Shown in pieces: positions 10,150 through 50,629 of a DNA stretch of 64,000 bases; the stretch's first letter is position 1, and each line of letters opens with the position of its first letter. A model generated the notes under the pieces. That model did no database searches and was not told the origin of the DNA. It saw only the letters and a list, made by a program, of their open reading frames with translations. Position numbers and translations under genes: made by a program. The stretch lies in the NCBI GenBank assembly GCA_028692955.1, contig JAQUWH010000004.1, positions 14,407-78,406 of the forward strand, read 5' to 3'. The DNA is from Clostridia bacterium (lineage in GTDB: Bacteria > Bacillota > Clostridia > TANB77 > CAG-465).

Positions 10150-10232
10150 GTCGGTGTGGCGGAACTGGCAGACGCACAGGTCTCAAACACCTGCGGGAAA
10201 CCGTGTGGGTTCGATTCCCACCATCGACACCA
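10150..10232 (+). tRNA. tRNA-Leu (anticodon CAA), type II with long variable arm, CCA encoded
   Basis: Hand-folded. Acceptor GTCGGTG/CATCGAC, anticodon loop CTCAAAC, variable arm, T-arm GTGGG-TTCGATT-CCCAC, then ACCA. Confidence 0.9.
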
Positions 10233-10268
10233 TAAGATAAAACCTCCGCATCAAAGCGGTGTTAGATA

Positions 10269-10297
10269 AGGTCAACTGAAATAAGTTGGTCTTTTTT
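10269..10297 (+). terminator. rho-independent terminator after tRNA-Leu
   Basis: 9-bp stem AGGTCAACT/AGTTGGTCT (two G:U pairs), loop GAAATA, T6 tract. Confidence 0.6.
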
Positions 10298-10618
10298 GGT
10301 CGAAATTTTAGACAAAACTAGTAAAATAAGGATTAATATGATGAAGGAAATATCTGCTGAAACATTAAATTTTGTATGTCTTTGAGAAGATGTACAAATA
10401 TCTAAGCATTATATTGTTTATGGATTTCTAAATAGCAACGAAAAATGTAAATTAGGTAATATGACTAAAGAAGAATGTAAGAAATTATTTAAAGATAATG
10501 AAGGATTGTTAGAAATATAAAATATATTGTTTGTCACGTTTTGCGTTTTAAAAAGTAAAACTTGTATAAAATTAATTTATTTACGTTTTTATTTTATTCT
10601 AAAAAATGAAATATATAC

Positions 10619-10640
10619 AAAAAAGCTCCCTTTTGGGAGT
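10619..10640 (-). terminator. rho-independent terminator after minus-strand tRNA-Gly
   Basis: CTCCC-TTTT-GGGAG hairpin followed on the minus strand by a T6 run. Confidence 0.6.
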
Positions 10641-10650
10641 ACATATTCAT

Positions 10651-10724
<74 letters not shown>

Positions 10725-10923
10725 ATAATTATATTATATCATAGCTATATCTACTTTACAACTTTTCATCATAATACTTTATTAAAAATATAGTAATAAA
10801 ATTATATCATGCATTATATATTTTACTATAGTAACTCAGGAGTAAATGATAATTTATAAAAAATAATCAAAATATATTGACAAATAATGAAAATAATAAT
10901 ATAATAGATATATAATTTAATTT

Positions 10924-10997
<74 letters not shown>

Positions 10998-11045: not shown

Positions 11046-11422
11046 TATAAAACTTGAATGTTCTCTTTCTAGGAAGGAGGACATTTTGGTATGCTCGTGA
11101 ATCACAAATTGCTTTAGAATATACTGAATTGAGAATTTTCGAAAAAGTTATTAAAAAAGAAATTATATCTGCTAAAAACAGTATAGATAAAGAAAACGAT
11201 TGACTTATTGATCTCAACAAGCCAATCAAAAGAGGTAAAGGTAAATAAGAAAATAGTTGCAATTGTGCAAACATATTTTGTAATTCAAACTAGAAAACAA
11301 GAAATCATCTACCTTAGAGTGTTTTCAACATTCTAGCAAAATATTCATTAGCGGATTGTTTTCAGCGTTTTAATCATATGCTAGATTATAATAATATGAT
11401 GTTATACTTCATCAATCACTTT

Positions 11423-20824: not shown

Positions 20825-22210
20825 ATGAAAACAAACAAGAAAGGTATATCACTGATTACGCTCGTTATAACAATTATAGTTGTAATAATATTAGCTGCAG
20901 CAGTGATATTAACACTAAACAATAATAATCCAATAGAAAATGCTAAAGAGGCAACGTTTAAACAAGATGTATCAACCGTACAAGATGATTTAAATATGTA
21001 TGTATCAAATAAGTATGCAAAAACAAACGGAAACTTTGATTTAACAGCGCTTAACTTAAGTGATACAACAAATCCAAAGATAACAGATGAATTAACATCA
21101 GTATCAAATAGTAAATTGAATGGAAAAGTAGAAGTACAAAATGGTAAACTAGTATATACAGGAACAGATGAGACAGAGAAAAAATGGTTTGGAGAAATCA
21201 TTCAAGGTGGAACAACAGGTGGTGGGAACACACCAAGTATGCCTGAGACTACAACTCCACCAACAACTGCAGTAACAGAAAACACAAAATACACTGATGC
21301 AAGTGGTAAAACAGCGGTAATACCAAAAGGATTTAAAGTATCAAGTATAGAAACAGAACAAAGTATAGATGGTGGACTTGTAGTAATTGCGCCGGATGAT
21401 GTTGGAAGTGAGTTTGTATGGGTACCAGTATCAAATGTAGATGATATGATAGAAGTATCAGATACAACAAATCCAACAGATGCAAAAGGTAAGTTATATA
21501 ACTGGTCAAAGGGAACAACTTATGTAGAAGGAACTCTAAATACGGATACAAATTTAAGGGAACCGGATTACTTAGATAACAATGCTTATGATAATAATGC
21601 AACTTATCTAAAACAAATCAATGACATATTAGCAACAAACCTAACCAATGGAGAGGAATTAAAAGCCTTAATGCAAGAAGACTTAAATAACATCTATTCT
21701 AGTGTAAGAGATAACCATGGCTTTTATATAGGAAGATATGAAACAGGGAATTTAAAAGAAACTAAGGTAGTATCAAAAAAAGATAATACTGATATATCAA
21801 ATCAAACATGGTATACAATGTATGCAAAACAGAAGAAGTATGCAAGTGATATATCAAGTGATAGTGTAGAATCAAATATGATATTTGGCTGTCAGTGGGA
21901 TGCAACAATGAGGTTTTTTGCCAATGATTATGTAGTAAATGCAGAGACATATAACGGAGGAAAATCTGCTTATTTTGGAGGTTCAGTAGAAAAAGCAACA
22001 GGAAGTGTAGAACCAGTTAAAAACATCTATGATATGTCAGGAAATGTAGGAGCTTGGACAGCTGAGGCGAACAGCTCCAGTAGCCGTAGCTTTCGTGGAG
22101 GCTATTACTTTTATAGTGCTAGCCCCCGTTATGCGGCTTACCGTGTCAGTACCAATCCGAACGGTTCTACCAGTTTCTATGGCTCTCGTCTTGCGCTTTA
22201 TATAAAGTAG
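20825..22210 (+). CDS. pilin-like N-terminus fused to FGE-sulfatase/C-type-lectin-fold domain (family member 1)
   Basis: The SD is AGGAGG. The N-terminus is MKTNKKGISLITLVITIIVVIILAAAVILTL, followed by a T/P/G-rich linker. FGE-type motifs are SEFVWVPV, GFYIGRYE, GCQWDATMRF, NIYDMSGNVGAWT, RGGYY and GSRLALYIK. Confidence 0.75.
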   Translation: MKTNKKGISLITLVITIIVVIILAAAVILTLNNNNPIENAKEATFKQDVSTVQDDLNMYVSNKYAKTNGNFDLTALNLSDTTNPKITDELTSVSNSKLNGKVEVQNGKLVYTGTDETEKKWFGEIIQGGTTGGGNTPSMPETTTPPTTAVTENTKYTDASGKTAVIPKGFKVSSIETEQSIDGGLVVIAPDDVGSEFVWVPVSNVDDMIEVSDTTNPTDAKGKLYNWSKGTTYVEGTLNTDTNLREPDYLDNNAYDNNATYLKQINDILATNLTNGEELKALMQEDLNNIYSSVRDNHGFYIGRYETGNLKETKVVSKKDNTDISNQTWYTMYAKQKKYASDISSDSVESNMIFGCQWDATMRFFANDYVVNAETYNGGKSAYFGGSVEKATGSVEPVKNIYDMSGNVGAWTAEANSSSSRSFRGGYYFYSASPRYAAYRVSTNPNGSTSFYGSRLALYIK

Positions 22211-25844: not shown

Positions 25845-26200
25845 GGGGGTGTAAGGTTTCGACAGATATCCAGAAATACAAATAGCGAGTAGTGGATTCT
25901 CGTTGGCCACTATAAAAACGAGAACTAAATTTTAAACGCAGATAGAAATGAATTTGCATTAGCTGCCTAGTTGGTAGCTTGTCTTACTATTTTTTGCTAG
26001 AGGGGATAGAAAGGCATCGATTTATCTAGCTAACGAATCTAACTGATCGTTTTAAGGTTAGTGGGTATTTTAAAACGATAGGATAACATATTTTTGTAAA
26101 TGTTTCAGTGTTATTCTATTAAAGCAAACATTTACTGCACTCGGAGAATTTTGTATGAAAGGATTTTTGGACACGAGTTCAATTCTCGTCACCTCCACCA
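25845..26200 (+). ncRNA. ssrA: tmRNA (SsrA)
   Basis: The 5' end is GGGGGTGTAAGGTTTCGAC. The 3' end is GGACACGAGTTCAATTCTCGTCACCTCCACCA, with a tRNA-Ala-like acceptor (G3:U pair) and T-arm. The tag frame GCA GAT AGA AAT GAA TTT GCA TTA GCT GCC TAG (25938-25970) encodes ADRNEFALAA. An extended -10 TGgTATAAT lies at 25825-25833. Confidence 0.9.
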
Positions 26201-35006: not shown

Positions 35007-35250
35007 ATTTTTCCTCCATCATCTTTTGTATAACTATATTGTATTATATAATGAAAAAATATTCAACAAAAACAAGGAAAAAAATAAATTTCTAAAGAAT
35101 AAATAAATACAGTTAATTAAAATAAAGTTGGATCTTAAAATAATTCATTTTAACACAAGAACAAAACAAGTCACTTTTTGTCATTGTCGACAAAAAATGA
35201 CAAATATCGCTTTGATATATTTGTATAATGGAGAAAGGAGGGATATATAT

Positions 35251-35691
35251 ATGAAAAAGAAAATAATATATGCAGTGTTCATTATATTAGGATTAATTAT
35301 TATTTGTGGGGTTATCTATACATGTAATCCTAACATGTTTAATTCGGATTTAAAAATTACAAAGATTACTAAGATGGATTATTCAATTACTCACGTTACA
35401 GCGACAAGAAAGCAAGGAGTATTGCCTGAGGAAGCAAAGTCGGAATATTATTTTATTGCAAATAACAAGGGGATTATTATAGATGTTATCGTAAAGGAAT
35501 ATTATACCGAGGATAGCAAGTTAAATCAAGCATATAATAAAATAAAAGAGTTGGTAGGATCTATTAGAGATAATCCAAGAATCAGAGATGGATGTATTGT
35601 ATATAATCTATACATGTATAATAATAAACATGTTGATGAAATAAATACTTTCTTTAATTCAGCTGAAAATCCTGTTATAGAGAAAATTTAA
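35251..35691 (+). CDS. small signal-anchored hypothetical protein (paralog A)
   Basis: MKKKIIYAVFIILGLIIICGVIYTCNPNMF.... The ATG at 35251 follows the SD AGGAGGG. It is a paralog of the next gene. Confidence 0.7.
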   Translation: MKKKIIYAVFIILGLIIICGVIYTCNPNMFNSDLKITKITKMDYSITHVTATRKQGVLPEEAKSEYYFIANNKGIIIDVIVKEYYTEDSKLNQAYNKIKELVGSIRDNPRIRDGCIVYNLYMYNNKHVDEINTFFNSAENPVIEKI

Positions 35692-35779
35692 TTTAGTAAA
35701 TTTTTAATATAAAAATTTTTTATTGTTGGCAAGTATTTCTTTGAAATATTTGTATAATAGTGTAAGGAGGGGGATATAT

Positions 35780-36220
35780 ATGAAAAAGAAAATAATATAT
35801 ACAGTATTCATTATATTAGGATTAGTTATTATTTGTGGAATTATCTATACATGTAATCCTAATATGTTCAACTCGGATTTAAAGATTACAAAGATTACTA
35901 AAATGGATTATTCAATTACTCATGTTACAACAATGCGTAAAGGCATAGTTGGAGATGAGAAAAGAAAAAAGGAGTATTACTTTATTGCAAATAACAAAAG
36001 AATAATTGTTGATGTAGTTGTAAGAGAATATTACGACGATGCAAACGAACTAAATGAAGCTTACAGTGAAATGAAAAAGTTTACAGGAGGATTTCAGGAT
36101 AACCCAAGAATAGGGGATGGATGTATTGTATATAATCTATACATGTATAATAACAAACATATTGACGAATTGAATAATTTCTTTGGTCCAGCTGAAAATG
36201 CTATAATCGAAAAAATTTAA
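35780..36220 (+). CDS. small signal-anchored hypothetical protein (paralog B)
   Basis: MKKKIIYTVFIILGLVIICGIIYTCNPNMF.... The ATG at 35780 follows the SD AGGAGGGGG. Confidence 0.7.
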   Translation: MKKKIIYTVFIILGLVIICGIIYTCNPNMFNSDLKITKITKMDYSITHVTTMRKGIVGDEKRKKEYYFIANNKRIIVDVVVREYYDDANELNEAYSEMKKFTGGFQDNPRIGDGCIVYNLYMYNNKHIDELNNFFGPAENAIIEKI

Positions 36221-36338: not shown

Positions 36339-36758
36339 TTACGCATACCAATCGTGTAAGGTACACTTCACAGTAGCAGAACTGCCGTTGTACACTGTGA
36401 ATGTAATTGTATATGTTCCAGCCTTTGCATCAGAAAAGTTTAAATCTTTAGTAGAATTAGGATTTAAAGTAATAAATCCTGCACCACCAGATACTGTGAT
36501 TAATCTCCCATCCGGCCCCCACATTTGCACTATAACTTGCTCATTGCTACCTGAGACTTCAAATGTGGCATGGGCCCACCAACTATTGCTGGGTGAATAG
36601 ATGTAGAAAGTTTCATTGGAACCTGTTGCTTGCCCACTTCCACTTACAGCCCGGGATTCCACTTGAGGGACTTCTTTTGCCATGACAGATGTGCCAAGAC
36701 AAAAGCATACTCCTATAACTAATAGGATTGACAACGATTTTTTTAGAAAGTTGTTCAT
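36339..36758 (-). CDS. small secreted protein (signal peptide + beta-rich domain), unknown function
   Basis: MNNFLKKSLSILLVIGVCFCLGTSVMA signal peptide. The ATG at 36758 follows the SD GGAGGA. The gene is visibly more GC-rich than its surroundings. Confidence 0.7.
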   Translation of the reverse strand: MNNFLKKSLSILLVIGVCFCLGTSVMAKEVPQVESRAVSGSGQATGSNETFYIYSPSNSWWAHATFEVSGSNEQVIVQMWGPDGRLITVSGGAGFITLNPNSTKDLNFSDAKAGTYTITFTVYNGSSATVKCTLHDWYA

Positions 36759-36953
36759 AAACTTATCCTCCAATTGTTTGATAAAATCCATACTATTAAT
36801 ACCAGTATAAAATGAAATTAAAATATTAAATACATTCTATGCTTTATATGACATAAAATCAAATAAATAGACAAATTAAGGCATGTATCGACAAAATAAG
36901 ACTAATATATGTTTTTAATAAATATAGGTAACAAAAAACTCCCCATTGGGAAG

Positions 36954-38710: not shown

Positions 38711-38739
38711 TTGATATATATTTTCTTTCGATATATAAT
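38711..38739 (+). promoter_or_regulatory. sigma-A-type promoter for first gene of pilin-like cluster
   Basis: TTGATA (38711-38716), 17-nt spacer, TATAAT (38734-38739). Confidence 0.5.
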
Positions 38740-38805
38740 ATTATTGTTCAAATGAGTGAAAATAATGAAATATAAAATATAAATATAAAATATGAGGTGC
38801 AATAT

Positions 38806-41616
38806 ATGGATAATAGAAGAGGTATATCTCTTATCATGTTAATCGTTACAATCGTACTAGCTTTGATATTAATCATGTCAACTGCTGCTGTTGTTGGTAA
38901 CGCTATTAATAATTCTAGAATTACTACTTTTGCAAGTGATGTTCTTGAAGTAGAGGATGCTGTTAAAAGCTACTATACGCAACATGATGAAATGCCAATT
39001 CTTGGTGAAGATAAGGTTTATTCACAAAAAGAAATAGGAGAACTTGTTCAAAAGGGAAAACAATTAGTTTTATTTGAGGAGGAACTAGATTTAAATGGAG
39101 ATTTTAACGTAAATGGGGAACTTGGAGCTTTTTATATTGTAGATTTGGGAAAAATTGGAATTGAGCAAACATCAAGAGGATTAAAAAAGGATAATAGCGA
39201 TGTGTATGCGGTGTCATATCCCTCTTTTCATGTATATTATTTGAAAGGACTTAATACGAGAAAAACATCCTATTTTTCCATGACATCTAGATTATCTAGT
39301 TTGATAAAGACATTTAATAGAAAAACTACCGCTTTGAGTACACAAGTGACAACACAAATGGTGGAAGGAATTACTGTAAAAAAGATAAATAAAAAATGGA
39401 CAAATGTGCTTGGTGTTACGGTTGAAACTTATATTTCTGATACAAGTGAGTCTTTATATTTAAAAGTGCAAAATGGGGCTGAAGTGCTTATTCCAACAAA
39501 AACTGGTCAAAATGTATTACGATTAGATAGTCTTACAAAAGCATTAGCAGCAGATGGTACAAATTATACTTTAAACACAGATTTAAGTAAATATAACGCG
39601 GCACAACAAAAAGATAAATACATGGAAATTATTAAAAAGAAAAGTGGAAATATTGTTGGTAGAGTAAGAACAAATCTACAAGAATATGAAACAGAGATTC
39701 CTACTTTAAAAGGAGAAATTACACTTTATCCATCAGAAGAATATAACTTAGCTACTTTTTATATCGGTGACAATATTAGTGGCACAAAGGAAGTAAGATA
39801 TGAGTATTTAACAAAATTTAATTCTCAAACCTATCCAGAACCATACTATGCAGGAATAACTACCTATGAACCTTCGTATATCAAGGCAAGAGGGAAAAAG
39901 GCAACAGTGTCAGAAGATGGGTATGTGGAAATAAAAATACCAAAGGAAATAGAAGGAATTGAAGTAAGAGCTTTTGACAATGCGGGAAATGTTAGTAATA
40001 AAATAACGATTAGCAATAAACGTGATATCTATATTGGTATAAATGCCAAATATCTTACTAAAATAAAGAGTGTATTTGACATTGTATTTAATAGTAATTC
40101 TAAAATTACAAGTGCAAAGGTATCCATTAGTAACAATGCTTCTAATTTTACAGATCCCATTATACTTACAGTACCAACTCCTACATCAGGAATCGCTAAA
40201 GTAGAAGATATAAAGTTTAATAGTTTGATTAATTATACTGACACTATCTACGTAAAAATTTCTGCTATCAATGCAAATGGTACTACAGAAACCAGAATCC
40301 AAAAATTCACCTTAAATAATGTACAAACTGATTTGGTTACTCCTGGTATACTAGTAACAAAAAATACCTACTATTTGATGGATGGAAAATTAGCTATGAT
40401 TCCAAAAGGATTTGCTGTATCTACTAAAATAAATGAGCAAAGTATTGATAATGGACTTGTTATCTTAGATGAAATTGGTAATGAGTTTGTATGGGTACCA
40501 GTGGATAATATCGCTGATTTTGAAAGAGTAGATTGGCCAGTACAATTACGTACTGTTGCAGAAACGCCAGAAGATGAGGCAACAACAGAATATATGGCGA
40601 TGAAAGAAAGTGTCAGTTTATATAAAGGCTATTATATAGCAAGATATGAAGCAGGGATACCAAGTACCACATCTTCGACAACGATTAATCATAACACTAA
40701 AGTAGACGGAAGTATCAAACCAGTATCAAAAAAAGGAGCAGGCGTTTGGAACTTTATATCTTGGGGAACATCAGCTAACACAGTGAGTCCTGGAAATGGA
40801 GCAGTAACAGTAGCAAGAGCAATGTATCCAAATGATAGTAGAAATCAAACAGGAGTTATATCAACATTATGCTATGATGTACAATGGGATATGGCATTAA
40901 GGCTTATCGAGAAAAAGGACCCAATATATCCGGGAGATAGCACAGGAAAAGGAAATTATACAGGAAAAATTTCTACTACAGGCGATAAATCGGAATATCA
41001 AAGAAATAACATATATGATATGGCAGGGAATATGTTTGAATATACAATGGCATCTTACAATTCTAATACAAAAGTTGTACGTGGTGGTAGTTATATTTGG
41101 GTAGATAGTAAAGTTCCGGCAGGTTATCGTGATGGGCGCTCATACGCAGACATCTATGAAAGTTTAGGCTTTCGTGTAGCATTATATATTAAACCTGATA
41201 TGAGTGATGCAGTAAATGTTGATCCAATTTATAAAACATCAAATGCAATGGACATACTTTGTAAGCTTAGTACTCGAAATTTCTATAAATATAACGATGA
41301 GGAGGCGTATGTAGCAATCGTATACTTTACTTCTGCAACTTCAGAGAGTGATTATATGGCACCTTTGTTAGTTGGTCCAACATCATCCTCTGTTGTGTAT
41401 TGTACAGACCATGATATGCAACCACTTTCAGCAACGGGTAGTTTTACATATAACGGTAAAACATATTACTATTCTAGTACTGGTCAATGGATGTCAACAA
41501 CAGTTTATACAACCAATCGAGTTCTTTTAAATACTGCATCCACAAGATATATTAATTCAATTTCTGGCATGGAAGATGCTGCGAGAGACTTATTAAAGAA
41601 ATGTCTTAATTATTAA
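38806..41616 (+). CDS. modular pilin-like surface protein: pilin-like N-terminus + head, Ig-like modules, one FGE/CLec-fold module, unassigned C-terminal module (family member 2)
   Basis: The SD GAGGTG is followed by MDNRRGISLIMLIVTIVLALILI. There is an Ig-like region containing VRYEY. FGE motifs are NEFVWVPV, GYYIARYE, CYDVQWD, NIYDMAGNMFEYT, RGGSY and GFRVALYIK. The C-terminal module contains YCTDHDMQPL. Confidence 0.75.
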   Translation: MDNRRGISLIMLIVTIVLALILIMSTAAVVGNAINNSRITTFASDVLEVEDAVKSYYTQHDEMPILGEDKVYSQKEIGELVQKGKQLVLFEEELDLNGDFNVNGELGAFYIVDLGKIGIEQTSRGLKKDNSDVYAVSYPSFHVYYLKGLNTRKTSYFSMTSRLSSLIKTFNRKTTALSTQVTTQMVEGITVKKINKKWTNVLGVTVETYISDTSESLYLKVQNGAEVLIPTKTGQNVLRLDSLTKALAADGTNYTLNTDLSKYNAAQQKDKYMEIIKKKSGNIVGRVRTNLQEYETEIPTLKGEITLYPSEEYNLATFYIGDNISGTKEVRYEYLTKFNSQTYPEPYYAGITTYEPSYIKARGKKATVSEDGYVEIKIPKEIEGIEVRAFDNAGNVSNKITISNKRDIYIGINAKYLTKIKSVFDIVFNSNSKITSAKVSISNNASNFTDPIILTVPTPTSGIAKVEDIKFNSLINYTDTIYVKISAINANGTTETRIQKFTLNNVQTDLVTPGILVTKNTYYLMDGKLAMIPKGFAVSTKINEQSIDNGLVILDEIGNEFVWVPVDNIADFERVDWPVQLRTVAETPEDEATTEYMAMKESVSLYKGYYIARYEAGIPSTTSSTTINHNTKVDGSIKPVSKKGAGVWNFISWGTSANTVSPGNGAVTVARAMYPNDSRNQTGVISTLCYDVQWDMALRLIEKKDPIYPGDSTGKGNYTGKISTTGDKSEYQRNNIYDMAGNMFEYTMASYNSNTKVVRGGSYIWVDSKVPAGYRDGRSYADIYESLGFRVALYIKPDMSDAVNVDPIYKTSNAMDILCKLSTRNFYKYNDEEAYVAIVYFTSATSESDYMAPLLVGPTSSSVVYCTDHDMQPLSATGSFTYNGKTYYYSSTGQWMSTTVYTTNRVLLNTASTRYINSISGMEDAARDLLKKCLNY

Positions 41617-41629
41617 AAATATTGAGTGA

Positions 41630-41664
41630 AGTGATTAAATTAGAATATAATTTAGTCACTTTTT
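41630..41664 (+). terminator. rho-independent terminator between cluster genes 1 and 2
   Basis: 12-bp stem AGTGATTAAATT/AATTTAGTCACT (one G:U pair), loop AGAATAT, T4. Confidence 0.7.
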
Positions 41665-41770
41665 CTTAATATTTGAATTGCTAGTATTAAATTAGCAAAA
41701 AGACTTGAAAAAAAAGTAAAAACCGTATAAAATTAAGATGTGATATAATTGTTACAAAAAGAGGGATAAT

Positions 41771-44700
41771 ATGAGATTAAAAAAAGGTATAACATTAATT
41801 GTTTTGATACTTACTATCATTTTAGCATTGATTTTGGTTACAGCAACGACACTTGCTATAGGAAATTCAGTTGAAAATGCAAGACTTGCTGCTTTTGCCA
41901 ATGACTTAAAGGAAGTAAAAGACGCTGTAAAAGTATATTATATGGAAAATGACTTTTTCCCTACAGATGCTGATAATATGGAAGCTTTATCACAGAAAGA
42001 GATTTTTACATTAATAAAAAATAAAGTAATATTTAAACAAGACTTATCAGTTAACAATGATTATAATGAAAATGATGATTTAGGAGCCTTTTATAAAATA
42101 GATTTAAAAGTATTGGGAATAGAACAAACAATAAGAGGGATAAAGGAAAATGGACAAGAAGACGACATCTATGTTGTTTCTTACCCATCTATGCAAATAT
42201 ATTATATTGCTGGGGTAAAAGCCAAAAGTAATACTTACTATTCATTAAGCACAAGATTAACAGATGTCGTGAAAGTAGTCAACGCTCCTACAGAGTATCC
42301 AGATAATGACATACAAAGTGCTTATGGTATGACAGTAAAAAAGTTAAAAAAAGTGTGGACTAACACTTTAAATATCAGCATTGAGGCACAAATGGCAGCT
42401 ACAGAAGGACTTTATTTAAAGGTGCAAGGAGGAACAGAAAAAAAGATAACAACTACTGTGGGACAAAATATTTTTAAACTAGATAGTTTTGATAAAATAT
42501 ATTCACAAAATACGAATACAATTCTAAACACCAATATACCAGCAACTGATATTAATAATTTCAATAATAGCATACAGGATAATAAATATATAGAAATTAT
42601 AAAAAAAGATGAAGAAAAAGCAAGTGTTGTTGGAACAATAAAAGTTAGTCTTTCCAATTACGAAACCAATATCCCTGTCAAGGCTTCTGATTCAATATTG
42701 ACACCGGGAGAGGAATATAATACTGTTACTTTCAAAGCTTTTGATGCAACAAGTGGAGTAAGGGAAGTAAGATATGAATATTTAAAAAAATTTGATGAAA
42801 GATCAACTTTACCTTCATCATATTATGATGGAGTAACAGAGTATGACCCATCATATATCAAAGCAAGAGGTAAGAAAGCAGAAATTGGTGAAGATGGTAC
42901 TGTAAAAATTGACATTCCAAAAGAAATTGAAGGAATCGAAATACGTATTTTTGATAGAGCTGGAAATGTTAGTGATAAAATACTACAAAGCAATAAAAGA
43001 AATATATGGGTAGGAATTGAGAGAGTTATCTTCTCTGCGGATATGGCTAGATTTTTATTTACCTTTAATAGTAAAACAAATATTACAGAAGCAAGTGCTC
43101 AAATTAGTGGCGACGGGAAAACATATTCTAAATCAACGCTATTATCCGTGCCCAATGTATCAAATAATATTGCTAGTATAGAAGCAACTTTTACGGATAT
43201 TAACATACAAGATACAATATATGTAAAAGTATCTGCTAAAAATGCAAGTGGCGATACTGAGACAAGAGTGAAAAAGTTTAATGTTACGGGAGAAGCTGTA
43301 AAGGATAATATTGGAAAGTTAATGAGTTATAGCCAAACAATAGACGGTAGAGCAGCAGGTACCTATCAAAATCCAATCATACCAGCAGGTTTTGCAGCTG
43401 TTAATACAGTTGATTCAAAATGGGATGCAAAAACGGGACCTGAATATAACAATGGTCTTGTGATTGAAGATGCCATTGGTAATCAATTTGTATGGGTACC
43501 TGTACCAAATATAGCTAATTTTAAAAGAATGGATTGGGCTAAACAAAATTATACAGTTGCGCAAACTCCAGAAGATGAAACAACAGCTGAATATATTGCA
43601 ATGAAACAAAGTGTTACTGAAAACAAAGGATTTTATATAGCACGTTATGAAGCGGGTATACCAGGTACAACATCATCTGTAACTACCAATCATAATACAC
43701 CAACAGATGGAAGTATTAAACCAGTATCAAAACAAGGAGTAGGAGTATGGAATTTTATTACTTGGGGAGTGATTAATAATACGGTAAATCCGGGAAATGG
43801 TGCTGTGACGTTGGCTAGGTCTATGTATCCTAGTAATGCTGAGAATCATTCAGGTGTTATATCTACTTTATGTTACGATGTGCAATGGGATGCTACGTTA
43901 AAATTTATGCAGGGTAAAGATTCGGAATATATCACAAATAGTACTGGAAAGGGAAACTATAAACCAAACCCTATGGCCGTTACAGGTAGTAAAGAAGAAT
44001 ATAAAGTATGTAATATATCAGATATGAGTGGAAACTTTTGGGAATGGACTATGGCTTCATATGGTAGTACTGATAGGGTATTACGTGGTGGAGACTTTAC
44101 CTGGTTTCCTACTGACCGACCGGTATCTTATCGTGGTTCGCTTGACTTTAGTGGTACGGGAGGACAATACTACACAATGCGTCCAACATTATATATCAAA
44201 GGAACTGGTGAAGGTACTAAAAATCCAAGTGATTTAATTGGATTAAATCAAGCAGAAAAAAGTAGAAAACCATATATTCCGACTCAATTTGAATGGGTAT
44301 CTGGAACTACAGTAGATACTGGGTATGTGATTAGAGGCAGTGATGGAAGTGAGTTTGTATGGGTACCAGTAGATGGCACTAAAATAAAATATGAGAAATG
44401 GTGTACAACAGGATTATCTTATACAGTTGTTACCAATGTGCCAGATAAAGATTATCCTACTGGGATTACCTCCGCTAATGAAAAGGTAATTGTAGATAAG
44501 GCTGGTGGGTTCTATGTGGGAAGATATGAGGCTGGCGTACCAGAAGGTCAGACTAAAATAGATGGAGCATCTGCTGCAACATCAAATGTATATGGAAAAC
44601 CAGTAAGTAAAAAAGGCGCAATATCTTGGACTAACATAGATTATATACGTGCCAATGGTAATGCCATTAGCTACATCAGTAATACAGAAGTAACAAGTGG

Positions 44701-45085
44701 TTTGGTAACTGGAACATCATGGGATACTGTAATGAAATGGATAGACAGTAGTGGTAAAAATGTTATGACAAACAGTGCATCATGGGGAAATTATTATAAT
44801 AGTACATTTATATATACAAATAGTGTGGGATTAAATGTTACTAAACCAATTAATAGCGCTGCAAAAATTCCTACTGGAAGCACTGAATATACTATTTCGA
44901 ATAATATATATGATATAGCAGGTAACGTAAATGAATGGAGTCTAGAAAAAAATAATACTAACTATATTATTCGTTCTGGGTATTATGGAGACATGACACC
45001 AGCTGCTAATCGTGCGGCATATATTATTAATACTCTAACTAATGAAAATTTGGGATTTAGATTAATGCTTTATGTAAAAATATAG
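41771..45085 (+). CDS. modular pilin-like surface protein with two tandem FGE/CLec-fold modules (family member 3)
   Basis: The N-terminus is MRLKKGITLIVLILTIILALILV, and the head and Ig modules are alignable with member 2. FGE module 1 has NQFVWVPV, GFYIARYE, CYDVQWD, NISDMSGNFWEWT and RGGDF. FGE module 2 has SEFVWVPV, GFYVGRYE, SWDTVMKW, NIYDIAGNVNEWS and GFRLMLYVK. Confidence 0.75.
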   Translation: MRLKKGITLIVLILTIILALILVTATTLAIGNSVENARLAAFANDLKEVKDAVKVYYMENDFFPTDADNMEALSQKEIFTLIKNKVIFKQDLSVNNDYNENDDLGAFYKIDLKVLGIEQTIRGIKENGQEDDIYVVSYPSMQIYYIAGVKAKSNTYYSLSTRLTDVVKVVNAPTEYPDNDIQSAYGMTVKKLKKVWTNTLNISIEAQMAATEGLYLKVQGGTEKKITTTVGQNIFKLDSFDKIYSQNTNTILNTNIPATDINNFNNSIQDNKYIEIIKKDEEKASVVGTIKVSLSNYETNIPVKASDSILTPGEEYNTVTFKAFDATSGVREVRYEYLKKFDERSTLPSSYYDGVTEYDPSYIKARGKKAEIGEDGTVKIDIPKEIEGIEIRIFDRAGNVSDKILQSNKRNIWVGIERVIFSADMARFLFTFNSKTNITEASAQISGDGKTYSKSTLLSVPNVSNNIASIEATFTDINIQDTIYVKVSAKNASGDTETRVKKFNVTGEAVKDNIGKLMSYSQTIDGRAAGTYQNPIIPAGFAAVNTVDSKWDAKTGPEYNNGLVIEDAIGNQFVWVPVPNIANFKRMDWAKQNYTVAQTPEDETTAEYIAMKQSVTENKGFYIARYEAGIPGTTSSVTTNHNTPTDGSIKPVSKQGVGVWNFITWGVINNTVNPGNGAVTLARSMYPSNAENHSGVISTLCYDVQWDATLKFMQGKDSEYITNSTGKGNYKPNPMAVTGSKEEYKVCNISDMSGNFWEWTMASYGSTDRVLRGGDFTWFPTDRPVSYRGSLDFSGTGGQYYTMRPTLYIKGTGEGTKNPSDLIGLNQAEKSRKPYIPTQFEWVSGTTVDTGYVIRGSDGSEFVWVPVDGTKIKYEKWCTTGLSYTVVTNVPDKDYPTGITSANEKVIVDKAGGFYVGRYEAGVPEGQTKIDGASAATSNVYGKPVSKKGAISWTNIDYIRANGNAISYISNTEVTSGLVTGTSWDTVMKWIDSSGKNVMTNSASWGNYYNSTFIYTNSVGLNVTKPINSAAKIPTGSTEYTISNNIYDIAGNVNEWSLEKNNTNYIIRSGYYGDMTPAANRAAYIINTLTNENLGFRLMLYVKI

Positions 45086-45110
45086 TTAAGAATAATTAAG
45101 AGGTAAAAAT

Positions 45111-46676
45111 ATGAAAAAAAAGAATGGTATTTCACTGATTTATTTGGTGTTACTCATTGTTGTTACATTAATTATAGTAGGTACAGTTATTGTGAATATG
45201 GATGTCCCGTCAGAAAGTACAAAGCTTAGTACTTTTACGAATAATGTAACACAAATACAAGAGGCAGTGAGAGCTAGTTACATGTTAGATGGAACAATAC
45301 CACAAAAAGATGGCACTTTGCCATTAACAAAAGATGAAGTGATTGCAAGGGTATATGGAGATAATAGAGAGGCCTTTAGAACAGAGTTGATACTAAATAA
45401 TGAAAATCCATATGTGAAGTTTTTGGAACTTGATCTTGGTAAATTGGGCATAAAAAAAGAAAGATATGGCTTTGGTGAAAAAGGGGCCGATGATATCTAC
45501 GTTGTAACAACAGATACTTTAAGAGTATATTATCTTTATGGTACAGATTACAAGGGAGAAAGGTATTTTTCTCTTAATAGCAAAATAGCAAGTATTTTGG
45601 ATATATCATATAGTGAAGAAGATAGTTCTGAAACTACTTCAACTATGTACAGTGGTATCTTTATTACGAAGAACAATGCACTAGCTACGAATGATATGGG
45701 AATTCATATTACTGCTAATATGAGTACAGGTGAAACGTTAAAAATAGGTTTTCAAGGTGCCACAGAAAGAATCATTACTACCAATGCTGAAAAAAATGTT
45801 TTTTCATTTGGAAATCTAGCTGAATTAAATAATCTTAATATTCTAAATTCAAAATTTAGTGCTACCGATATCAACACATTTAATAGTTTATCGGGAAGTA
45901 ATAAAAAAATACAGATAACAAAATATAGAGGTACAGACATTGTTGCCAAACATGTGATTGATTTATCTAACTACGATGGTGTGACTCCTAGTATATCAGA
46001 TGTTACTTTTACTCAGTATACAGGGATGAAGATGCTTCAAGGAACAGCTAGTGATGCTGACAGTGGCATAGAGCAGGTAAGATATGAATATATTAATAAA
46101 CTTGATAAAAAGACACCATATTATGATGGCGTAATCAATATTGATGATGTGTATATGAAAAATAAAGCAAAAAGTAGTGAAATTACTGCTGATAATAAAT
46201 TTACAATTAAGGTACCAAATGATGTTGGTGAAATTATGATAGCAGTCATTGATAAAGCTGGTAATATTACAAGATATACTAGAAGTGATGATTCAATGTA
46301 TAAGATTTCAACTGCAATGGAGCAAATATGTCAAATTCACGGTAGAAATTATTATAAATACAATAATGAAGAAGCGTACGTTGGAGTGGCCTATTTTTAT
46401 TCTGATGCAAATCCTGTCATGATGGGTCCAGTACTTGTTAGTACATCAGAATCAGCTGTTACATACTGTACTGACCATGATATGCAACCACTTACGACAT
46501 TAGGAAGTTTAACATATAATGGAAAAAAATATTATTATTCCAGCAATCAACAGTGGTATCAATTTACAGATTGTACAACAGATAGAGTAATTATAAATAG
46601 CCTGGCTAATAAGTATGCAGTTAACGTTAAAGACGCAGCAATAGGATTGTTAGATAAAGTTTTCAATAAACAATAA
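45111..46676 (+). CDS. modular pilin-like surface protein: pilin-like N-terminus + head, Ig-like module, unassigned C-terminal module, no FGE module (family member 4)
   Basis: The N-terminus is MKKKNGISLIYLVLLIVVTLIIV and there is an Ig-like SGIEQVRYEY segment. The C-terminal module is homologous to that of member 2 (YCTDHDMQPL, TYNGKKYYYSS). It lies 25 nt after member 3 and so is probably co-transcribed. Confidence 0.75.
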   Translation: MKKKNGISLIYLVLLIVVTLIIVGTVIVNMDVPSESTKLSTFTNNVTQIQEAVRASYMLDGTIPQKDGTLPLTKDEVIARVYGDNREAFRTELILNNENPYVKFLELDLGKLGIKKERYGFGEKGADDIYVVTTDTLRVYYLYGTDYKGERYFSLNSKIASILDISYSEEDSSETTSTMYSGIFITKNNALATNDMGIHITANMSTGETLKIGFQGATERIITTNAEKNVFSFGNLAELNNLNILNSKFSATDINTFNSLSGSNKKIQITKYRGTDIVAKHVIDLSNYDGVTPSISDVTFTQYTGMKMLQGTASDADSGIEQVRYEYINKLDKKTPYYDGVINIDDVYMKNKAKSSEITADNKFTIKVPNDVGEIMIAVIDKAGNITRYTRSDDSMYKISTAMEQICQIHGRNYYKYNNEEAYVGVAYFYSDANPVMMGPVLVSTSESAVTYCTDHDMQPLTTLGSLTYNGKKYYYSSNQQWYQFTDCTTDRVIINSLANKYAVNVKDAAIGLLDKVFNKQ

Positions 46677-46685
46677 TACAGTAAG

Positions 46686-46732
46686 CAAAGTGTATGACCC
46701 CCTTATTTGTAGGGAATTATACACTTTGTTTT
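46686..46732 (+). terminator. rho-independent terminator after pilin-like cluster
   Basis: Outer stem CAAAGTGTAT/ATACACTTTG, an inner CCCT/AGGG pairing, then TTTTG. Confidence 0.7.
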
Positions 46733-46954
46733 GCAAATATGCAATATAAAAAAATAAGCTAGAAAAAATAGTAAATTTTAAATTGTTTATATATAAAATC
46801 CATGATATAATACTTGTGTGATACTATGAAGATATTTATTATGTAGAAAATATATTTTGGTGGAAATTTAAAAAAATAAAATTTTTATATCGTTATATGT
46901 AGTTGAAAAATGTTATTAAACAAAATTTTCAAAATTAATTATAGGAGGTGTACT

Positions 46955-49900
46955 ATGTGGACAAAAGAGCAACAAAACGCCATTGATATTCAAGATAAAA
47001 ACTTACTTGTATCCGCGTCAGCAGGTAGTGGTAAAACCGCTGTTTTAGTAGAACGTGTGATACAAAAAATAATGAAGTATCGAGTAGATATCGATAAAAT
47101 ATTAGTAGTGACTTTTACGAATGCTGCGGCCAATGAATTAAAAGAAAGATTACTGGCGGCTATTTACAAAAAAATAGAAGAAGAACCGGATAACTACTTT
47201 TTAAAAAGACAAGTTAGCTTATTGTCTAGAGCAAGCATTACAACCATAGATGCCTTTTGTATAGAGCTTGTAAGAAGTAACTTCCATGTGTTAAATATAG
47301 ATCCTAATTTTAAAATAAGTACCAATACACAGTCAGCTATTTTAAAAAATAAGGTAATGACGAAACTATTAGAAGAGGAGTATTCACATACAAAAGAAAA
47401 CGATGAAAATGCAAAATGGCTATACAAAATACTAGAAATGTTTGGCGGTAAGGATGAGAAACTAATAGAAACATTATTTAATCTCTATACCTATATCCAA
47501 AGCTTTCCTTACCCATTTGAGTATTTAAAAGAAAGTATTGAAAAGTATCATAGGGATCATACCAATTCTGTAGATTTAGCAGCTACTGACTTTGGTGATG
47601 AAATATTACTAGAAGTAAAATCTAATTTGAAAATATTAGTCAAACAAATTGAAGACATGAAAAACCTCCTTGAGCAAAAGGATGAATTTACAAAACATGT
47701 AGAGTTATTAGAAGATGATTTAAATTACGTTAATCGATGTATCTATAGTGCTCATTCATGGGATCAATTGTATGAAACATTATTTTCTCATGAGTTAGGG
47801 AGTAATATTGTATCTAGAAAAATAACGGATGTGGTATTAAAGGATAAAATAAAAGATTTTAGAAACAAGATACCGAAGAAAACAATAGAGGATAGTAAAA
47901 AGAGTATCTATGCTACTACTAAAGAAATTTTAGCAGATAACGAAAAAGCGTACGAATATGTGGAATATCTATACCATTTTTTGTATCGTTTTGATGAAGA
48001 ATATATGACAATGAAAAATGATATGGGACTATTAGAGTTTAATGATATTCATCATATTGCACTTGAATTGCTATACTATAAGAATGAGGAGGGTGTATAT
48101 AAAGAGACAGATATTGCAAGTGGACTAAAAGAGAGATTTGTTGAGGTATATACGGATGAATATCAAGATACGGATTTTGTACAAGAAAAAATATTGCAAG
48201 CGGTTGCAAGAAAATCAAATCGATTTATGGTGGGAGATATTAAGCAAAGTATTTATCGATTTAGACAAGCAAGACCAGAAATTTTTAATCATAAGTATGA
48301 GGAATATGTCTTACTAAATGAGGAAAATCTGAATGAAGTAACGGATGGGAAAATCATTCTTGCAGAAAATTTTAGAAGTAGAAGGCAGGTAATTGATAGT
48401 ATTAATTATATCTTTGAAAAAATAATGAGTAAGCGACTGGGGGAATGCAGTTATGAAGAGATAGAGACTTTAAAAAATGGGGCTACTTGGTATGAAGAAG
48501 AGGAAACCGTAGACTATGCTACTAAAATCAATATTATTGATAGTAACAAAAAGGAAAATGAAGAGTTATCGAAAGAAGATGATTCATTAAAAGAAATTTT
48601 TGAGCTTGAAAAATATGAGCAAGAGGCAATATACATTGCAAAAGAGATAATAAAACTAAAGAAAACGTTTAAGGTATTCACAAAGGATGGATTTAAAGAG
48701 ACCAGTTACAAAGATATGGTAGTACTGTTAAGGTCCATTAAAACAAAAGGTATTATTTTAGAAAGAGTATTAAAGAGTTATGGAATACCAGCATATTGTG
48801 ATAATTCTACGAATTTATTTGAAAGTGATGAAATAAAGCTTGTTCTATCATTTCTTAAAGTATTAGATAATCCGTTAAGAGATGTTGAATTAGTGAGTGT
48901 CTTATATAGTATCATTGGTAAATTTAATTTAGATGAACTGACGGATATCAAATTATATAAAGATAACAAAAACAAGGGAATGTATGAGAGTATCGTAGCT
49001 ATTTTAGAAGCGGAAGATACTGGTTTATCTGATGAAGTGATAAAAAAAATAAGAAACTTTATGGATTTACTTTGTAAGTTTAAGAAATACGCGTTACATT
49101 ATACTGTGTCAGAATTACTGATAAAAGTATATAAAGAGACAAATTTATATTATCAATTGGCACTTGAAAAGATGGCAGATGTCAAGAAAGCAAACCTCAA
49201 TGTATTAGTGGAAATTGCAAAAGAATATGAGAAGAACTTTAATCCAAGTCTGAATGCATACCTTCACTACCTTGACAATATAAAAGAGACGGGAATTGGA
49301 AATAATGAGGCAAAAATACTTGGAGAAAATGAAAATGTGGTAAGAATCATGACCATCCATAAATCAAAGGGTCTTGAATTTCCAATTGTGATCCTTTCAG
49401 ATACAACAGCACCTTATATGGAAAGAGATTTAAATACAGAGGTTATTATGCATCAAGACTTAGGAATTGGTGTTAATATTGTCAATGAAAAGTATGGTAT
49501 TACTTATCCTTCTGCTATTAAAAATGCCATTAAAAATATAGCATCAAGACAAATGAAATCAGAAGAACTTAGAATGTTATACGTTGCAATGACAAGAGCA
49601 AAAGAAAAATTGGTGATTTTTGCTTCGTTAAATGATTATGAAAAGTATAACAGCAATACATTTGTCATTGAAAAAAATGGAAAAATAGATGCTAGTATTA
49701 TTAATGGCAATAAATCATATTTTAAGAATATAAATATGGCATTATTAGATTATGATAGAGATAACAAAAAATTATTCGATATTAACGTAACAAAAGTAAA
49801 TTTAAATGATATGGTAAATGACTTTGCTAGTAAAGAGTCGGATAACGAAAAATTGGTCTTAACAGAAGAAATTGAAAAACTTAAACCTTTGATTCCAAAG

Positions 49901-50629
49901 GAGAAGGAAGAAGAAATACAAACAAAAAGAACTGAAGTGTATGATAAAGTATCCGAAAACTTAAATTACCAATATCCATATAGTGAAGATATAGATACGG
50001 CAAGTAGAGTTAGCGTTAGTGCATTAAAGCAAGAATATTTAAATTCTTTAAAACAGGAAGAAGAAAATAACGGTACTATTCCTAAAAAAATAGAATGTGT
50101 AAACGATTTTAAGTTACCTTCTCTTTTACAAGAGGATAATAGTTATACTCCTGTAAGAAAAGGGATATTAGTTCATTTTATTCTTGAAAATTTAGATGTT
50201 AAGAAGTATATGACAAAGGAATCGTTACAAGAATATATAGAATCTCTTGTTTACAAGCATGTGTTAACAAAAGAAGATAAAAAGCAAATTAATTTAGATA
50301 GTATTCTTCATTTTTTAAATTCAAAAATTGGTACTGAATTAAAAGAAGCACATACTATTTGGAAAGAGCAAGAATTTATTTTAAGAGATGCTACCTTATC
50401 CAAAAGTGTCATACAAGGCGTGATTGATTTATATTATTTAAATAAGAAGAATAACATTGTATTAGTTGATTTTAAAACCGATAGAATGACAAAAGAAAGT
50501 GACTATATTAAAAAATACAAAATTCAACTTGAAATTTATAAAGAGGCAATTGAGAAAATAACAGGATTAACAGTAGAAAAAACATATATTTATTCTTTTG
50601 AATTAAACAAAGAAATTGAAATAAAGTAG
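46955..50629 (+). CDS. addA: ATP-dependent helicase/nuclease subunit A (AddA/RexA)
   Basis: UvrD-type motifs (ASAGSGKTAVLVER, TFTNAAANELKER). The C-terminal RecB-family nuclease motifs are GVIDLYY...LVDFKTD...QLEIY. The ATG at 46955 follows the SD GGAGGTG. Confidence 0.9.
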   Translation: MWTKEQQNAIDIQDKNLLVSASAGSGKTAVLVERVIQKIMKYRVDIDKILVVTFTNAAANELKERLLAAIYKKIEEEPDNYFLKRQVSLLSRASITTIDAFCIELVRSNFHVLNIDPNFKISTNTQSAILKNKVMTKLLEEEYSHTKENDENAKWLYKILEMFGGKDEKLIETLFNLYTYIQSFPYPFEYLKESIEKYHRDHTNSVDLAATDFGDEILLEVKSNLKILVKQIEDMKNLLEQKDEFTKHVELLEDDLNYVNRCIYSAHSWDQLYETLFSHELGSNIVSRKITDVVLKDKIKDFRNKIPKKTIEDSKKSIYATTKEILADNEKAYEYVEYLYHFLYRFDEEYMTMKNDMGLLEFNDIHHIALELLYYKNEEGVYKETDIASGLKERFVEVYTDEYQDTDFVQEKILQAVARKSNRFMVGDIKQSIYRFRQARPEIFNHKYEEYVLLNEENLNEVTDGKIILAENFRSRRQVIDSINYIFEKIMSKRLGECSYEEIETLKNGATWYEEEETVDYATKINIIDSNKKENEELSKEDDSLKEIFELEKYEQEAIYIAKEIIKLKKTFKVFTKDGFKETSYKDMVVLLRSIKTKGIILERVLKSYGIPAYCDNSTNLFESDEIKLVLSFLKVLDNPLRDVELVSVLYSIIGKFNLDELTDIKLYKDNKNKGMYESIVAILEAEDTGLSDEVIKKIRNFMDLLCKFKKYALHYTVSELLIKVYKETNLYYQLALEKMADVKKANLNVLVEIAKEYEKNFNPSLNAYLHYLDNIKETGIGNNEAKILGENENVVRIMTIHKSKGLEFPIVILSDTTAPYMERDLNTEVIMHQDLGIGVNIVNEKYGITYPSAIKNAIKNIASRQMKSEELRMLYVAMTRAKEKLVIFASLNDYEKYNSNTFVIEKNGKIDASIINGNKSYFKNINMALLDYDRDNKKLFDINVTKVNLNDMVNDFASKESDNEKLVLTEEIEKLKPLIPKEKEEEIQTKRTEVYDKVSENLNYQYPYSEDIDTASRVSVSALKQEYLNSLKQEEENNGTIPKKIECVNDFKLPSLLQEDNSYTPVRKGILVHFILENLDVKKYMTKESLQEYIESLVYKHVLTKEDKKQINLDSILHFLNSKIGTELKEAHTIWKEQEFILRDATLSKSVIQGVIDLYYLNKKNNIVLVDFKTDRMTKESDYIKKYKIQLEIYKEAIEKITGLTVEKTYIYSFELNKEIEIK

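Follow-up and report, generated by a model that had tools for sequence, protein, structure and literature searches.

The 64,000-nt stretch of contig JAQUWH010000004.1 analyzed here (the window), from a Clostridia bacterium, carries three adjacent + strand genes between the tsaE operon and addA. We name them A, B, and C; they encode large modular proteins whose N-termini resemble those of type IV pilins and whose C-termini hold modules related to formylglycine-generating enzyme (FGE), a separate C-terminal domain (CTD), or both. An earlier reading made from the letters alone (the sequence-only reading) had taken the products for a possible new class of modular pilin-like or signal-anchored adhesins with lectin-fold tips, an interpretation that our results support in part: the FGE/lectin and pilin homologies hold at family level, whereas A, B, and C reach no curated threshold. 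Reading of the open reading frames (ORFs) confirmed the three genes where that reading had placed them, and AlphaFold 2 (AF2) models, with confidence as the predicted local distance difference test (pLDDT), together with Foldseek, BLASTP, and tblastn comparisons, divided the locus as follows.

38711–38739, + strand: promoter-like site TTGATA-17-TATAAT, 5′ of gene A, with 11 of 12 consensus matches, the best of the region
38806–41616, + strand: gene A, 936 aa; leader and alpha-1 helix, pilin-like head, three beta-sandwich domains, FGE-type lectin module, CTD
38806–39321, + strand: head of A, residues 1–172; leader MDNRRG, hydrophobic alpha-1N lacking Glu at +5 (Glu5-less), four strands, C-terminal helix (AF2)
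39343–40311, + strand: stalk of A, residues ~180–502; three immunoglobulin (Ig)/FN3-like beta-sandwich domains (AF2 strands, pLDDT 80–95; Foldseek)
40363–41196, + strand: FGE-sulfatase-like module of A (C-type lectin fold), residues 520–797; no catalytic Cys pair; AF2 pLDDT about 90
41221–41613, + strand: CTD of A, 131 aa; mobile module, 50% identical to the CTD of C (BLASTP, A 806–935 vs. C 394–519)
41771–45085, + strand: gene B, 1104 aa; head and stalk as in A, then two FGE modules
about 43361–44206 (B1) and 44291–45082 (B2), + strand: FGE modules of B (BLASTP, tblastn)
45111–46676, + strand: gene C, 521 aa; head, shorter stalk, and CTD (46287–46673), without an FGE module
46684–46732, + strand: terminator-like hairpin followed by a T-run, 3′ of gene C (direct reading; long loop)

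The pairwise BLASTP module map bore out the shared N-terminus, head, and Ig-like region and the shuffled C-terminal modules that had been described from the letters. Residues 4–796 of A and 4–810 of B are 48% identical through head, stalk, and first FGE module, the second FGE module of B aligns at 29% (A 542–796 vs. B 843–1103), and C aligns with B at 32% (1–387 vs. 1–401); the C-terminal make-up is FGE plus CTD in A, two FGE modules in B, and CTD alone in C, and the FGE module of A matched the other FGE modules of the window by tblastn. The sequence motifs reported for these regions are present in A and B1 (EFVWVPV, G(F/Y)YI.RYE, CYDVQWD, NI(Y/S)DM.GN, RGG, VRYEY, YIKARGKKA, and EIEGIE), except that GFR is found in A and is absent from B1, and the FGE motif series of B2 is divergent, with SWD for CYDVQWD and RSG for RGG. 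As for expression, a ribosome-binding site (GAGGTG) lies 6 nt ahead of the gene A ATG at 38806. Of the promoter and terminators that the sequence-only reading gave the cluster, the promoter-like site and the hairpin with its T-run can be seen; promoter-like sites were no more frequent than in shuffled sequence (62 vs. 51 ± 7), and a consensus terminator scan returned no + strand intergenic terminator, missing the hairpin after gene C because of its long loop.

A six-frame motif scan of the window detected a further family member, absent from the sequence-only reading, which lies between an MBOAT/DHHW pair on one side and nusG on the other.

20825–22210, + strand: fourth family gene, 461 aa; Glu5-less N-terminus KKG/ISLIT (slash after the conserved Gly), Thr/Pro linker, one FGE module

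More than 3273 homologues of this gene were found. The same metagenome-assembled genome (MAG) encodes at least seven paralogues, namely the four in the window plus P0108 on a 109,742-bp contig and P0058 and P0111 on a 184,875-bp contig, with P0058 standing alone amid sporulation genes. The short relatives consist of helix, linker, and FGE module only and have no globular pilin domain.

Comparing 79 distinct N-termini of the family, we found Gly at −1 in all 79, Ile at +1 in 76, and Thr at +9 in 74, with Thr or Ser at +2, Leu at +3, and Ile at +4, behind a leader of 3–32 aa (median net charge +3) and within a hydrophobic stretch running from +1 to about +24. Glu at +5, a hallmark of polymerizing pilins, occurs in none of the 79, which have Ala, Val, Thr, Ile, or Met there instead; in the window N-termini (RRG/ISLIM in A, KKG/ITLIV in B, KNG/ISLIY in C) the +5 residues are Met, Val, and Tyr, and Thr in the fourth gene. 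The head that follows, about 170 aa long, is conserved as well, with a DxYVVSYPS motif and invariant P64, G125, D132, Y144, and Y145. A profile built from 27 head domains and run against PDB sequences gave 21 matches at E ≤ 5, 17 of them type IV pilins or pseudopilins, all aligned in register with the prepilin Gly and cleavage site; the best were geopilin (9egp, E 2.9e-5) and Streptococcus sanguinis PilE1 (8pfb, E 4.1e-4), followed by PilE, GspG, TcpA, PilA, and the CFA/III pilin. The AF2 model of the head alone (pLDDT 82, pTM 0.72) has a helix at residues 9–60, two short helices, four strands predicted as a sheet, and a C-terminal helix. By the profile matches, the N-terminal helix is homologous to the alpha-1 helix of type IV pilins, in register with its cleavage site, and the pilin-like helix described by the sequence-only reading is borne out.

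Curated models recognize the family unevenly. The hidden Markov models N_methyl (PF07963) and TIGR02532 gave no match at E ≤ 1 for A, B, or C, and among these three only the N-terminus of B drew sub-threshold matches to other pilin models (TIGR01710 GspG, cut-off 89 bits, at 24 bits and E 3e-5; T2SSG at E 0.005); it also matched geopilin 9egp (E 0.005). N_methyl was matched at E ≤ 0.01 by 7 of 25 relatives of the fourth gene, T2SSG by 4 of 41 sampled relatives, and no NCBIfam model covers the Glu5-less family. This silence of N_methyl and TIGR02532 on A, B, and C, along with the missing Glu5 and the lack of machinery nearby (see below), would suit plain type II signal-anchored surface proteins that are never cleaved, their pilin likeness being a vestige without a role in processing or assembly; cellular targets of diversity-generating retroelements (DGRs), to which we return below, also usually have a simple N-terminal transmembrane helix or signal peptide (PMC8144416). 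We nevertheless regard this as unlikely. Families whose only other common feature is an FGE module retain the invariant Gly and the I-(T/S)-L-I...T9-I10 pattern, a constraint that a mere anchor would not be under, and both an amphipathic alpha-1C and the conserved head come after the anchor. In sequence, the N-terminal signature is much more tightly specified than a plain membrane anchor would need, which points to a partner that recognizes it, the simplest candidate being a prepilin peptidase. That Glu5 is lost throughout the family, for its part, argues against polymerization as body subunits of a filament.

Beyond the head, the AF2 model of the gene A product (pLDDT 77.6) comprises a 52-residue N-terminal helix, an alpha/beta head, three beta-sandwich domains, and a confident FGE module, with the CTD left unmodeled. 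Foldseek with the full model retrieved tandem Ig/FN3/MG-domain proteins and adhesin repeats (E about 1e-6), recovering the Ig-like region that had been read from the letters, and also matched phage tail-fibre proteins having FN3 domains. The Ig/FN3 stalk swamps the full-length structure search in both PDB and BFVD, so the FGE homology rests on sequence profiles. PF03781 scored A at 15.3 bits (E 0.016) and B at 19.0 bits, below its cut-off of 23.3, while it was matched at E ≤ 0.01 by 12 of 25 and 9 of 41 sampled relatives (best 1.9e-7), and an FGE family profile found SUMF2/pFGE (1y4j, E 6.6e-5), with PorK/GldK and Treponema denticola TvpA further down. The FGE/C-type-lectin homology proposed earlier is therefore upheld for the family, but not for the individual window proteins. 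By direct reading, none of the four window FGE modules has a Cys between RGG (or RSG) and the module end, the part in which the catalytic cysteines of FGE lie, and since no cysteine follows this motif, the modules are in all probability not active FGE enzymes.

We weighed, as far the least probable account, that the proteins are enzymes (formylglycine-generating or related oxidases) or derive from receptor-binding proteins of phages or plasmids. It would explain the weak PF03781 similarity and the matches of the whole model to FN3-bearing tail-fibre proteins, but it is opposed by the missing Cys pair in all four modules, by a best solved relative (SUMF2) that is itself an inactive paralogue, and by a chromosomal locus that is syntenic in about 20 genomes. 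A tblastn search with the fourth gene gave no match in 50,697 phage and 72,556 plasmid records, and a phage or plasmid origin was rejected on that search.

The CTD (~130 aa) is covered by no Pfam family, returned nothing in a word-indexed homologue search, and is modeled by AF2 at pLDDT below 45. An exhaustive search of a representative library found 93 relatives, which sit in diverse large Gram-positive surface proteins that also have SpaA, Flg_new, or MucBP repeats. We read the CTD as a novel mobile domain.

Protein A has 56 homologues at E ≤ 0.001, all from metagenomes or MAGs of Clostridia or Bacilli; these have head and stalk in common and end in FGE, Laminin_G_3, Ice_binding, CBM_2/CBM49, FctA, or Flg_new modules. 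Scanning one genome per GTDB species, we obtained 25 loci from uncultured Clostridia, including Clostridium sp. CAG:921, CAG:1219, and CAG:465; the isolate or sample names of some MAGs (Lapin, binchicken, Hadza) suggest animal and human gut. About 20 of the 25 loci share, by tblastn, the order lonC-rimI-tsaB-tsaE, then one to three divergently oriented head-family genes, then addA-yfiH. This confirms both the position of the cluster between the tsaE operon and addA and its conservation in related genomes. Because the synteny recurs in about 20 genomes, the tsaE–addA locus appears to be old and vertically inherited, with C-terminal modules that turn over; shuffling of these modules is seen in the window and in more than 20 related genomes.

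In a sister species (GTDB MAG BRZ_BV bin83, loci L009 and L014, and loci L034 and L035), promoterless 3′ cassettes lie inverted downstream of the orthologues of A and B.

L009; L014:1–6600; L034:3000–8800; L035:2400–8287: invertible-cassette regions of the sister species

The cassettes hold the end of an FGE module plus a CTD or Laminin_G_3. A 31-nt site, GCGCAAAAT(A/G)G(T/C)(A/G)TTAATGCGAACTTCAGTG, occurs in four copies, two in + orientation inside the FGE modules of the expressed genes and two in − orientation at the cassette starts, and in L014 each gene/cassette pair of sites forms a perfect inverted repeat. The assemblies themselves hold the segments in opposite orientations (L034 3890–4691 corresponds to L035 3295–2495 at 87.5%, and L034 7767–8716 to L014 4970–4020 at 95%). 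Protein variants P0002 and P0005, like P0008 and P0013, are identical up to the FGE end and then switch between CTD and Laminin_G_3, and the same CTD (97–100% identity) occurs on both genes. The MAG assembly breaks exactly at the 31-nt site, where L009 ends and L014 begins. These comparisons indicate that the sister species flips its 3′ cassettes between the 31-nt inverted repeats. The cassette locus has no recombinase gene. The window itself contains no minus-strand module, no inverted cassette, and no 31-nt site at up to 6 mismatches, and cassette inversion there is ruled out.

Diversification of a second kind was seen in other relatives. Downstream of P0128 (L037:10001–13600) lie bAvd and an RVT_1 reverse transcriptase, and a 137-nt pair of template repeat (TR, 13432–13568) and variable repeat (VR, 11274–11410) differs at 32 positions, 31 of them TR adenines; we judge this DGR to be genuine and P0128 to be its target. 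The called ORF of P0128 ends within the VR through a frameshift or stop, so that disruption or misassembly of this copy is possible. Orthologues of the fourth gene (P0059–P0103, 45 clusters at 90% identity) are constant except for a hypervariable stretch of about 50 residues at the end, in which 16 hypervariable columns contain 0.7% K/E/Q/M/W, compared with 24.2% elsewhere. Such depletion reads as the signature of adenine mutagenesis of AAY codons, and the hypervariable tails would imply an active DGR in that orthologue species, although neither its TR nor its reverse transcriptase was seen. In the window's fourth gene, the 31 residues between RGG and GSR are likewise free of K/E/Q/M/W, the pattern that a DGR variable region should show, and are AAY-compatible, whereas the VR-equivalent segments of A and B contain these residues and look static. 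Since none of the window's ORFs encodes a reverse transcriptase and none of the four modules has a TR/VR pair, a DGR within the window is ruled out, and a remote one acting in trans on its genes is possible.

A surface-exposed, ligand-binding role of the C-terminal modules is very likely, to judge from these patterns, because three independent diversification mechanisms focus on the modules and because they are swapped for domains related to carbohydrates or adhesion. The diversification mechanisms, which the sequence-only reading did not include, are to our mind the strongest evidence for an adhesin role.

Reading of ORFs of at least 100 aa and motif scans bore out that the 64-kb window has no pilB-, pilC-, pilD-, or comG-type genes and no competence machinery. 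A motif scan of 0.59 Mb in 34 sequences (loci L001–L033 plus the window), from more than 20 genomes, found 59 Glu5-less pilin-like N-termini and no canonical GFTLxE pilin, T2SSE-type Walker A motif, or A24 motif; nine Pfam-annotated loci, which represent eight distinct contexts (L003 repeats L002, and L004–L006 are the same place), also had no machinery. Overall, neither a prepilin peptidase nor type IV filament machinery was found in the window and 37 related loci.

Our favored explanation, to which we give a probability of roughly 40%, is that the window proteins are variable, stalked cell-surface adhesins on a carrier derived from a type IV pilin, processed or at least membrane-anchored, and non-polymerized. 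We prefer it because no paralogue has Glu5 and none is linked to machinery or canonical pilins, and because the Ig stalk suits the crossing of a Gram-positive wall and the short relatives have the helix only. The N-terminal helix would insert the protein in the membrane, and a prepilin peptidase encoded elsewhere would probably cleave after the Gly; the proteins would then most likely stay anchored by alpha-1N as non-polymerized adhesins, which would make them a bacterial equivalent of the "bindosome" proteins of archaea with their class III signal peptides. Head and Ig domains would serve to extend the binding module across the wall, and binding diversity would come from tandem and scattered paralogues and, in relatives, also from 3′ cassette inversion and DGR hypermutation of the lectin module. 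As putative ligands, glycans or the surfaces of other cells or of viruses are the likeliest. Most DGR targets of cellular origin have been interpreted as binders anchored in the membrane (PMC8144416).

Several findings weigh against this explanation, and many of them favor true modular minor pilins, which would be cleaved by the peptidase and then, as subunits without Glu5 that prime or tip the filament, be loaded by a type IV (or Com/Tad-like) machinery whose genes lie elsewhere, the paralogues serving as alternative adhesive tips like the PilV variants of IncI plasmids. The whole of alpha-1, in both its N and C halves, is nearly identical among paralogues, as expected of subunits packing into a common filament core. 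GspK is a known Glu5-less tip subunit, so loss of Glu5 would fit such a position. The homology of alpha-1 in register with the cleavage site, the invariant Gly, the conserved +1 to +4 motif, and the pilin-like head predicted by AF2 speak for minor pilins as well, as does the sister species' C-terminal cassette inversion, which parallels the PilV shufflon. The structure search suggested by the sequence-only reading was equivocal: Foldseek with the head model placed Clostridioides difficile PilA1 chains in the top five ranks, but at E values (0.55–1.2) that are not significant. In the suggested model searches (N_methyl, PF03781), no curated pilin or FGE model reaches threshold for A, B, or C singly. 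Pilin genes are often distant from their machinery, and pilus machinery with a major pilin may lie elsewhere in the genome, beyond the searched loci; a conserved Tad-like pilus cluster has been reported in order TANB77 (PMC11680825), to which the window's lineage may belong. Modular pilins, pilin plus SUMF fusions among them, are already catalogued and have been proposed to sit at filament tips (PMC8179133).

Set against minor pilins are the absence of machinery, peptidase, and Glu5 pilins from the 0.59 Mb around family members, the Glu5-less state of all of the seven or more paralogues in one genome, and an Ig stalk that would be unnecessary at a filament tip. The short relatives lack a globular pilin domain, and the tandem gene number varies from 1 to 3, hence there is no fixed tip complex. 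We consider minor pilins a possible account, somewhat less probable than non-polymerized anchored adhesins.

A broader proposal, which we offer as speculation and think rather unlikely, is that the Glu5-less motif G-I-(T/S)-L-I-x-L-(V/I)-(I/V)-T-I marks a separate route of sorting or anchoring that is widespread in Clostridia. Surface proteins by the thousands, unrelated in other respects, would then be processed by a prepilin-type peptidase or by a partner dedicated to the task and be displayed with no conventional pilus, much like the archaeal bindosome, and the tsaE–addA locus would be a programmable site for hypervariable adhesins, varied through module swapping, cassette inversion, and DGRs.

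The family as a whole is a large set of gut Clostridia surface proteins outside any curated model, all starting with a highly specific N-terminus of pilin descent in which the residue that serves classical pilins for polymerization is missing. If the proteins are indeed processed and displayed without a filament, they would represent a new use of the prepilin pathway in bacteria, and if they cap filaments, an extensive set of alternative adhesins for the pilus tip. In both cases, the conserved tsaE–addA locus, together with its relatives, joins three ways of varying a binding tip (paralogue or module exchange, site-specific inversion, and DGR hypermutation), which marks the proteins as key interaction molecules of uncultured gut bacteria. 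They are candidates for the recognition of host, glycans, phages, or other cells, and may be antigens.

The remainder of the window, in which every ORF of at least 100 aa was read, holds dnaE, a polysaccharide deacetylase gene, ychF, murC, an ABC transporter, mscL, ogg, the MBOAT/DHHW pair, nusG-rplKAJL, a transfer-messenger RNA (tmRNA), radA, disA, carD, murE, lonC, rimI-tsaB-tsaE, the cluster, addA, yfiH, pgsA, perR, rubrerythrin, tex, and uvrA. The tmRNA (25845–26200, tag ADRNEFALAA) is downstream of rplL, and a tRNA-Leu(CAA) gene and two divergent tRNA-Gly(UCC) genes occupy 10150–10997. Between lonC and rimI-tsaB-tsaE lies a + strand tandem duplicate (35128–35691 and 35723–36220; 529-nt spacing, 76–90% nucleotide identity), whose two small protein products each have an N-terminal membrane helix and match no known function, and a small secreted protein is encoded at 36339–36791 on the − strand. 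The addA gene (46910–50629; UvrD-type helicase), whose orthologues in L007 and L034 have the Pfam domain PDDEXK_1, is not preceded by addB, and the pilin-like cluster takes the upstream place in all of the approximately 20 syntenic genomes. In another locus (L036:1679–3130), genes for a large serine recombinase and for a ParE/Phd toxin-antitoxin pair precede the short family member P0130 by about 7 kb and belong to what is probably an unrelated mobile element.

With respect to known systems, a "new class" is too strong a description, since the pilin plus SUMF/FGE architecture (IPR012902-IPR005532) has been catalogued in 8 proteins (PMC8179133, Dataset S1, Raynaud et al. 2021) and no known class of DGR target scaffolds is larger than that of the FGE-type C-type-lectin domains, with FGE-type targets likewise already catalogued (PMC5758913). 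Like the modular type IV pilins, of which S. sanguinis PilB and PilC are examples (PMC8179133), the window proteins graft a ligand-binding module onto an N-terminal pilin-type module, and their relatives carry the same Laminin_G_3/concanavalin-type module as PilC. The architecture (pilin-like module plus FGE, CTD, or LamG) fits, but the IPR012902 motif that defines modular pilins (Raynaud et al. 2021) is not matched by the window proteins, which lack Glu5 and are not detected by N_methyl or TIGR02532. They differ further in the three-domain Ig stalk between pilin module and effector, in being orphans that adjoin no machinery in more than 20 genomes, and in their many paralogues per genome.

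The non-catalytic FGE-type lectin fold at the C-terminus is shared with DGR variable proteins of the FGE-sulfatase/C-type-lectin class such as T. denticola TvpA (2y3c; category "b", PMC5758913), and within the family P0128 is a DGR target and orthologues of the fourth gene have an AAY-type hypervariable tail. The window, in contrast, has neither reverse transcriptase nor template repeat, and the VR-equivalent segments of A and B appear static. TvpA is also a lipoprotein, whereas the window proteins have a prepilin-like anchor.

Inversion systems offer a second parallel. The shufflon of IncI plasmids swaps C-terminal segments of PilV through Rci, and Moraxella inverts a pilin gene through Piv; similarly, inversion in the sister species swaps the C-terminus of a pilin-like adhesin, the two short inverted repeats lying in the expressed gene and at the start of a promoterless inverted cassette. 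Here, however, inversion is seen in relatives and not in the window, the locus holds no recombinase gene, the carrier lacks Glu5, and the sister species has two independent two-cassette switches rather than one multi-segment shufflon.

GspK-type tip pseudopilins and the bindosome proteins of Sulfolobus, surface binders with archaeal class III signal peptides that form no long filaments, are likewise large proteins with extra domains and a prepilin-type N-terminus lacking Glu5, but they have no sequence relationship to the window proteins beyond alpha-1. To our knowledge GspK is always encoded together with its machinery, and we know of no counterpart here to the archaeal peptidase and Bas system. 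What appears new in comparison with all of these systems is the consistent Glu5-less signature, the carrier made of head and Ig stalk, the conserved orphan tsaE–addA locus, and the combination of cassette inversion and DGRs within one family.

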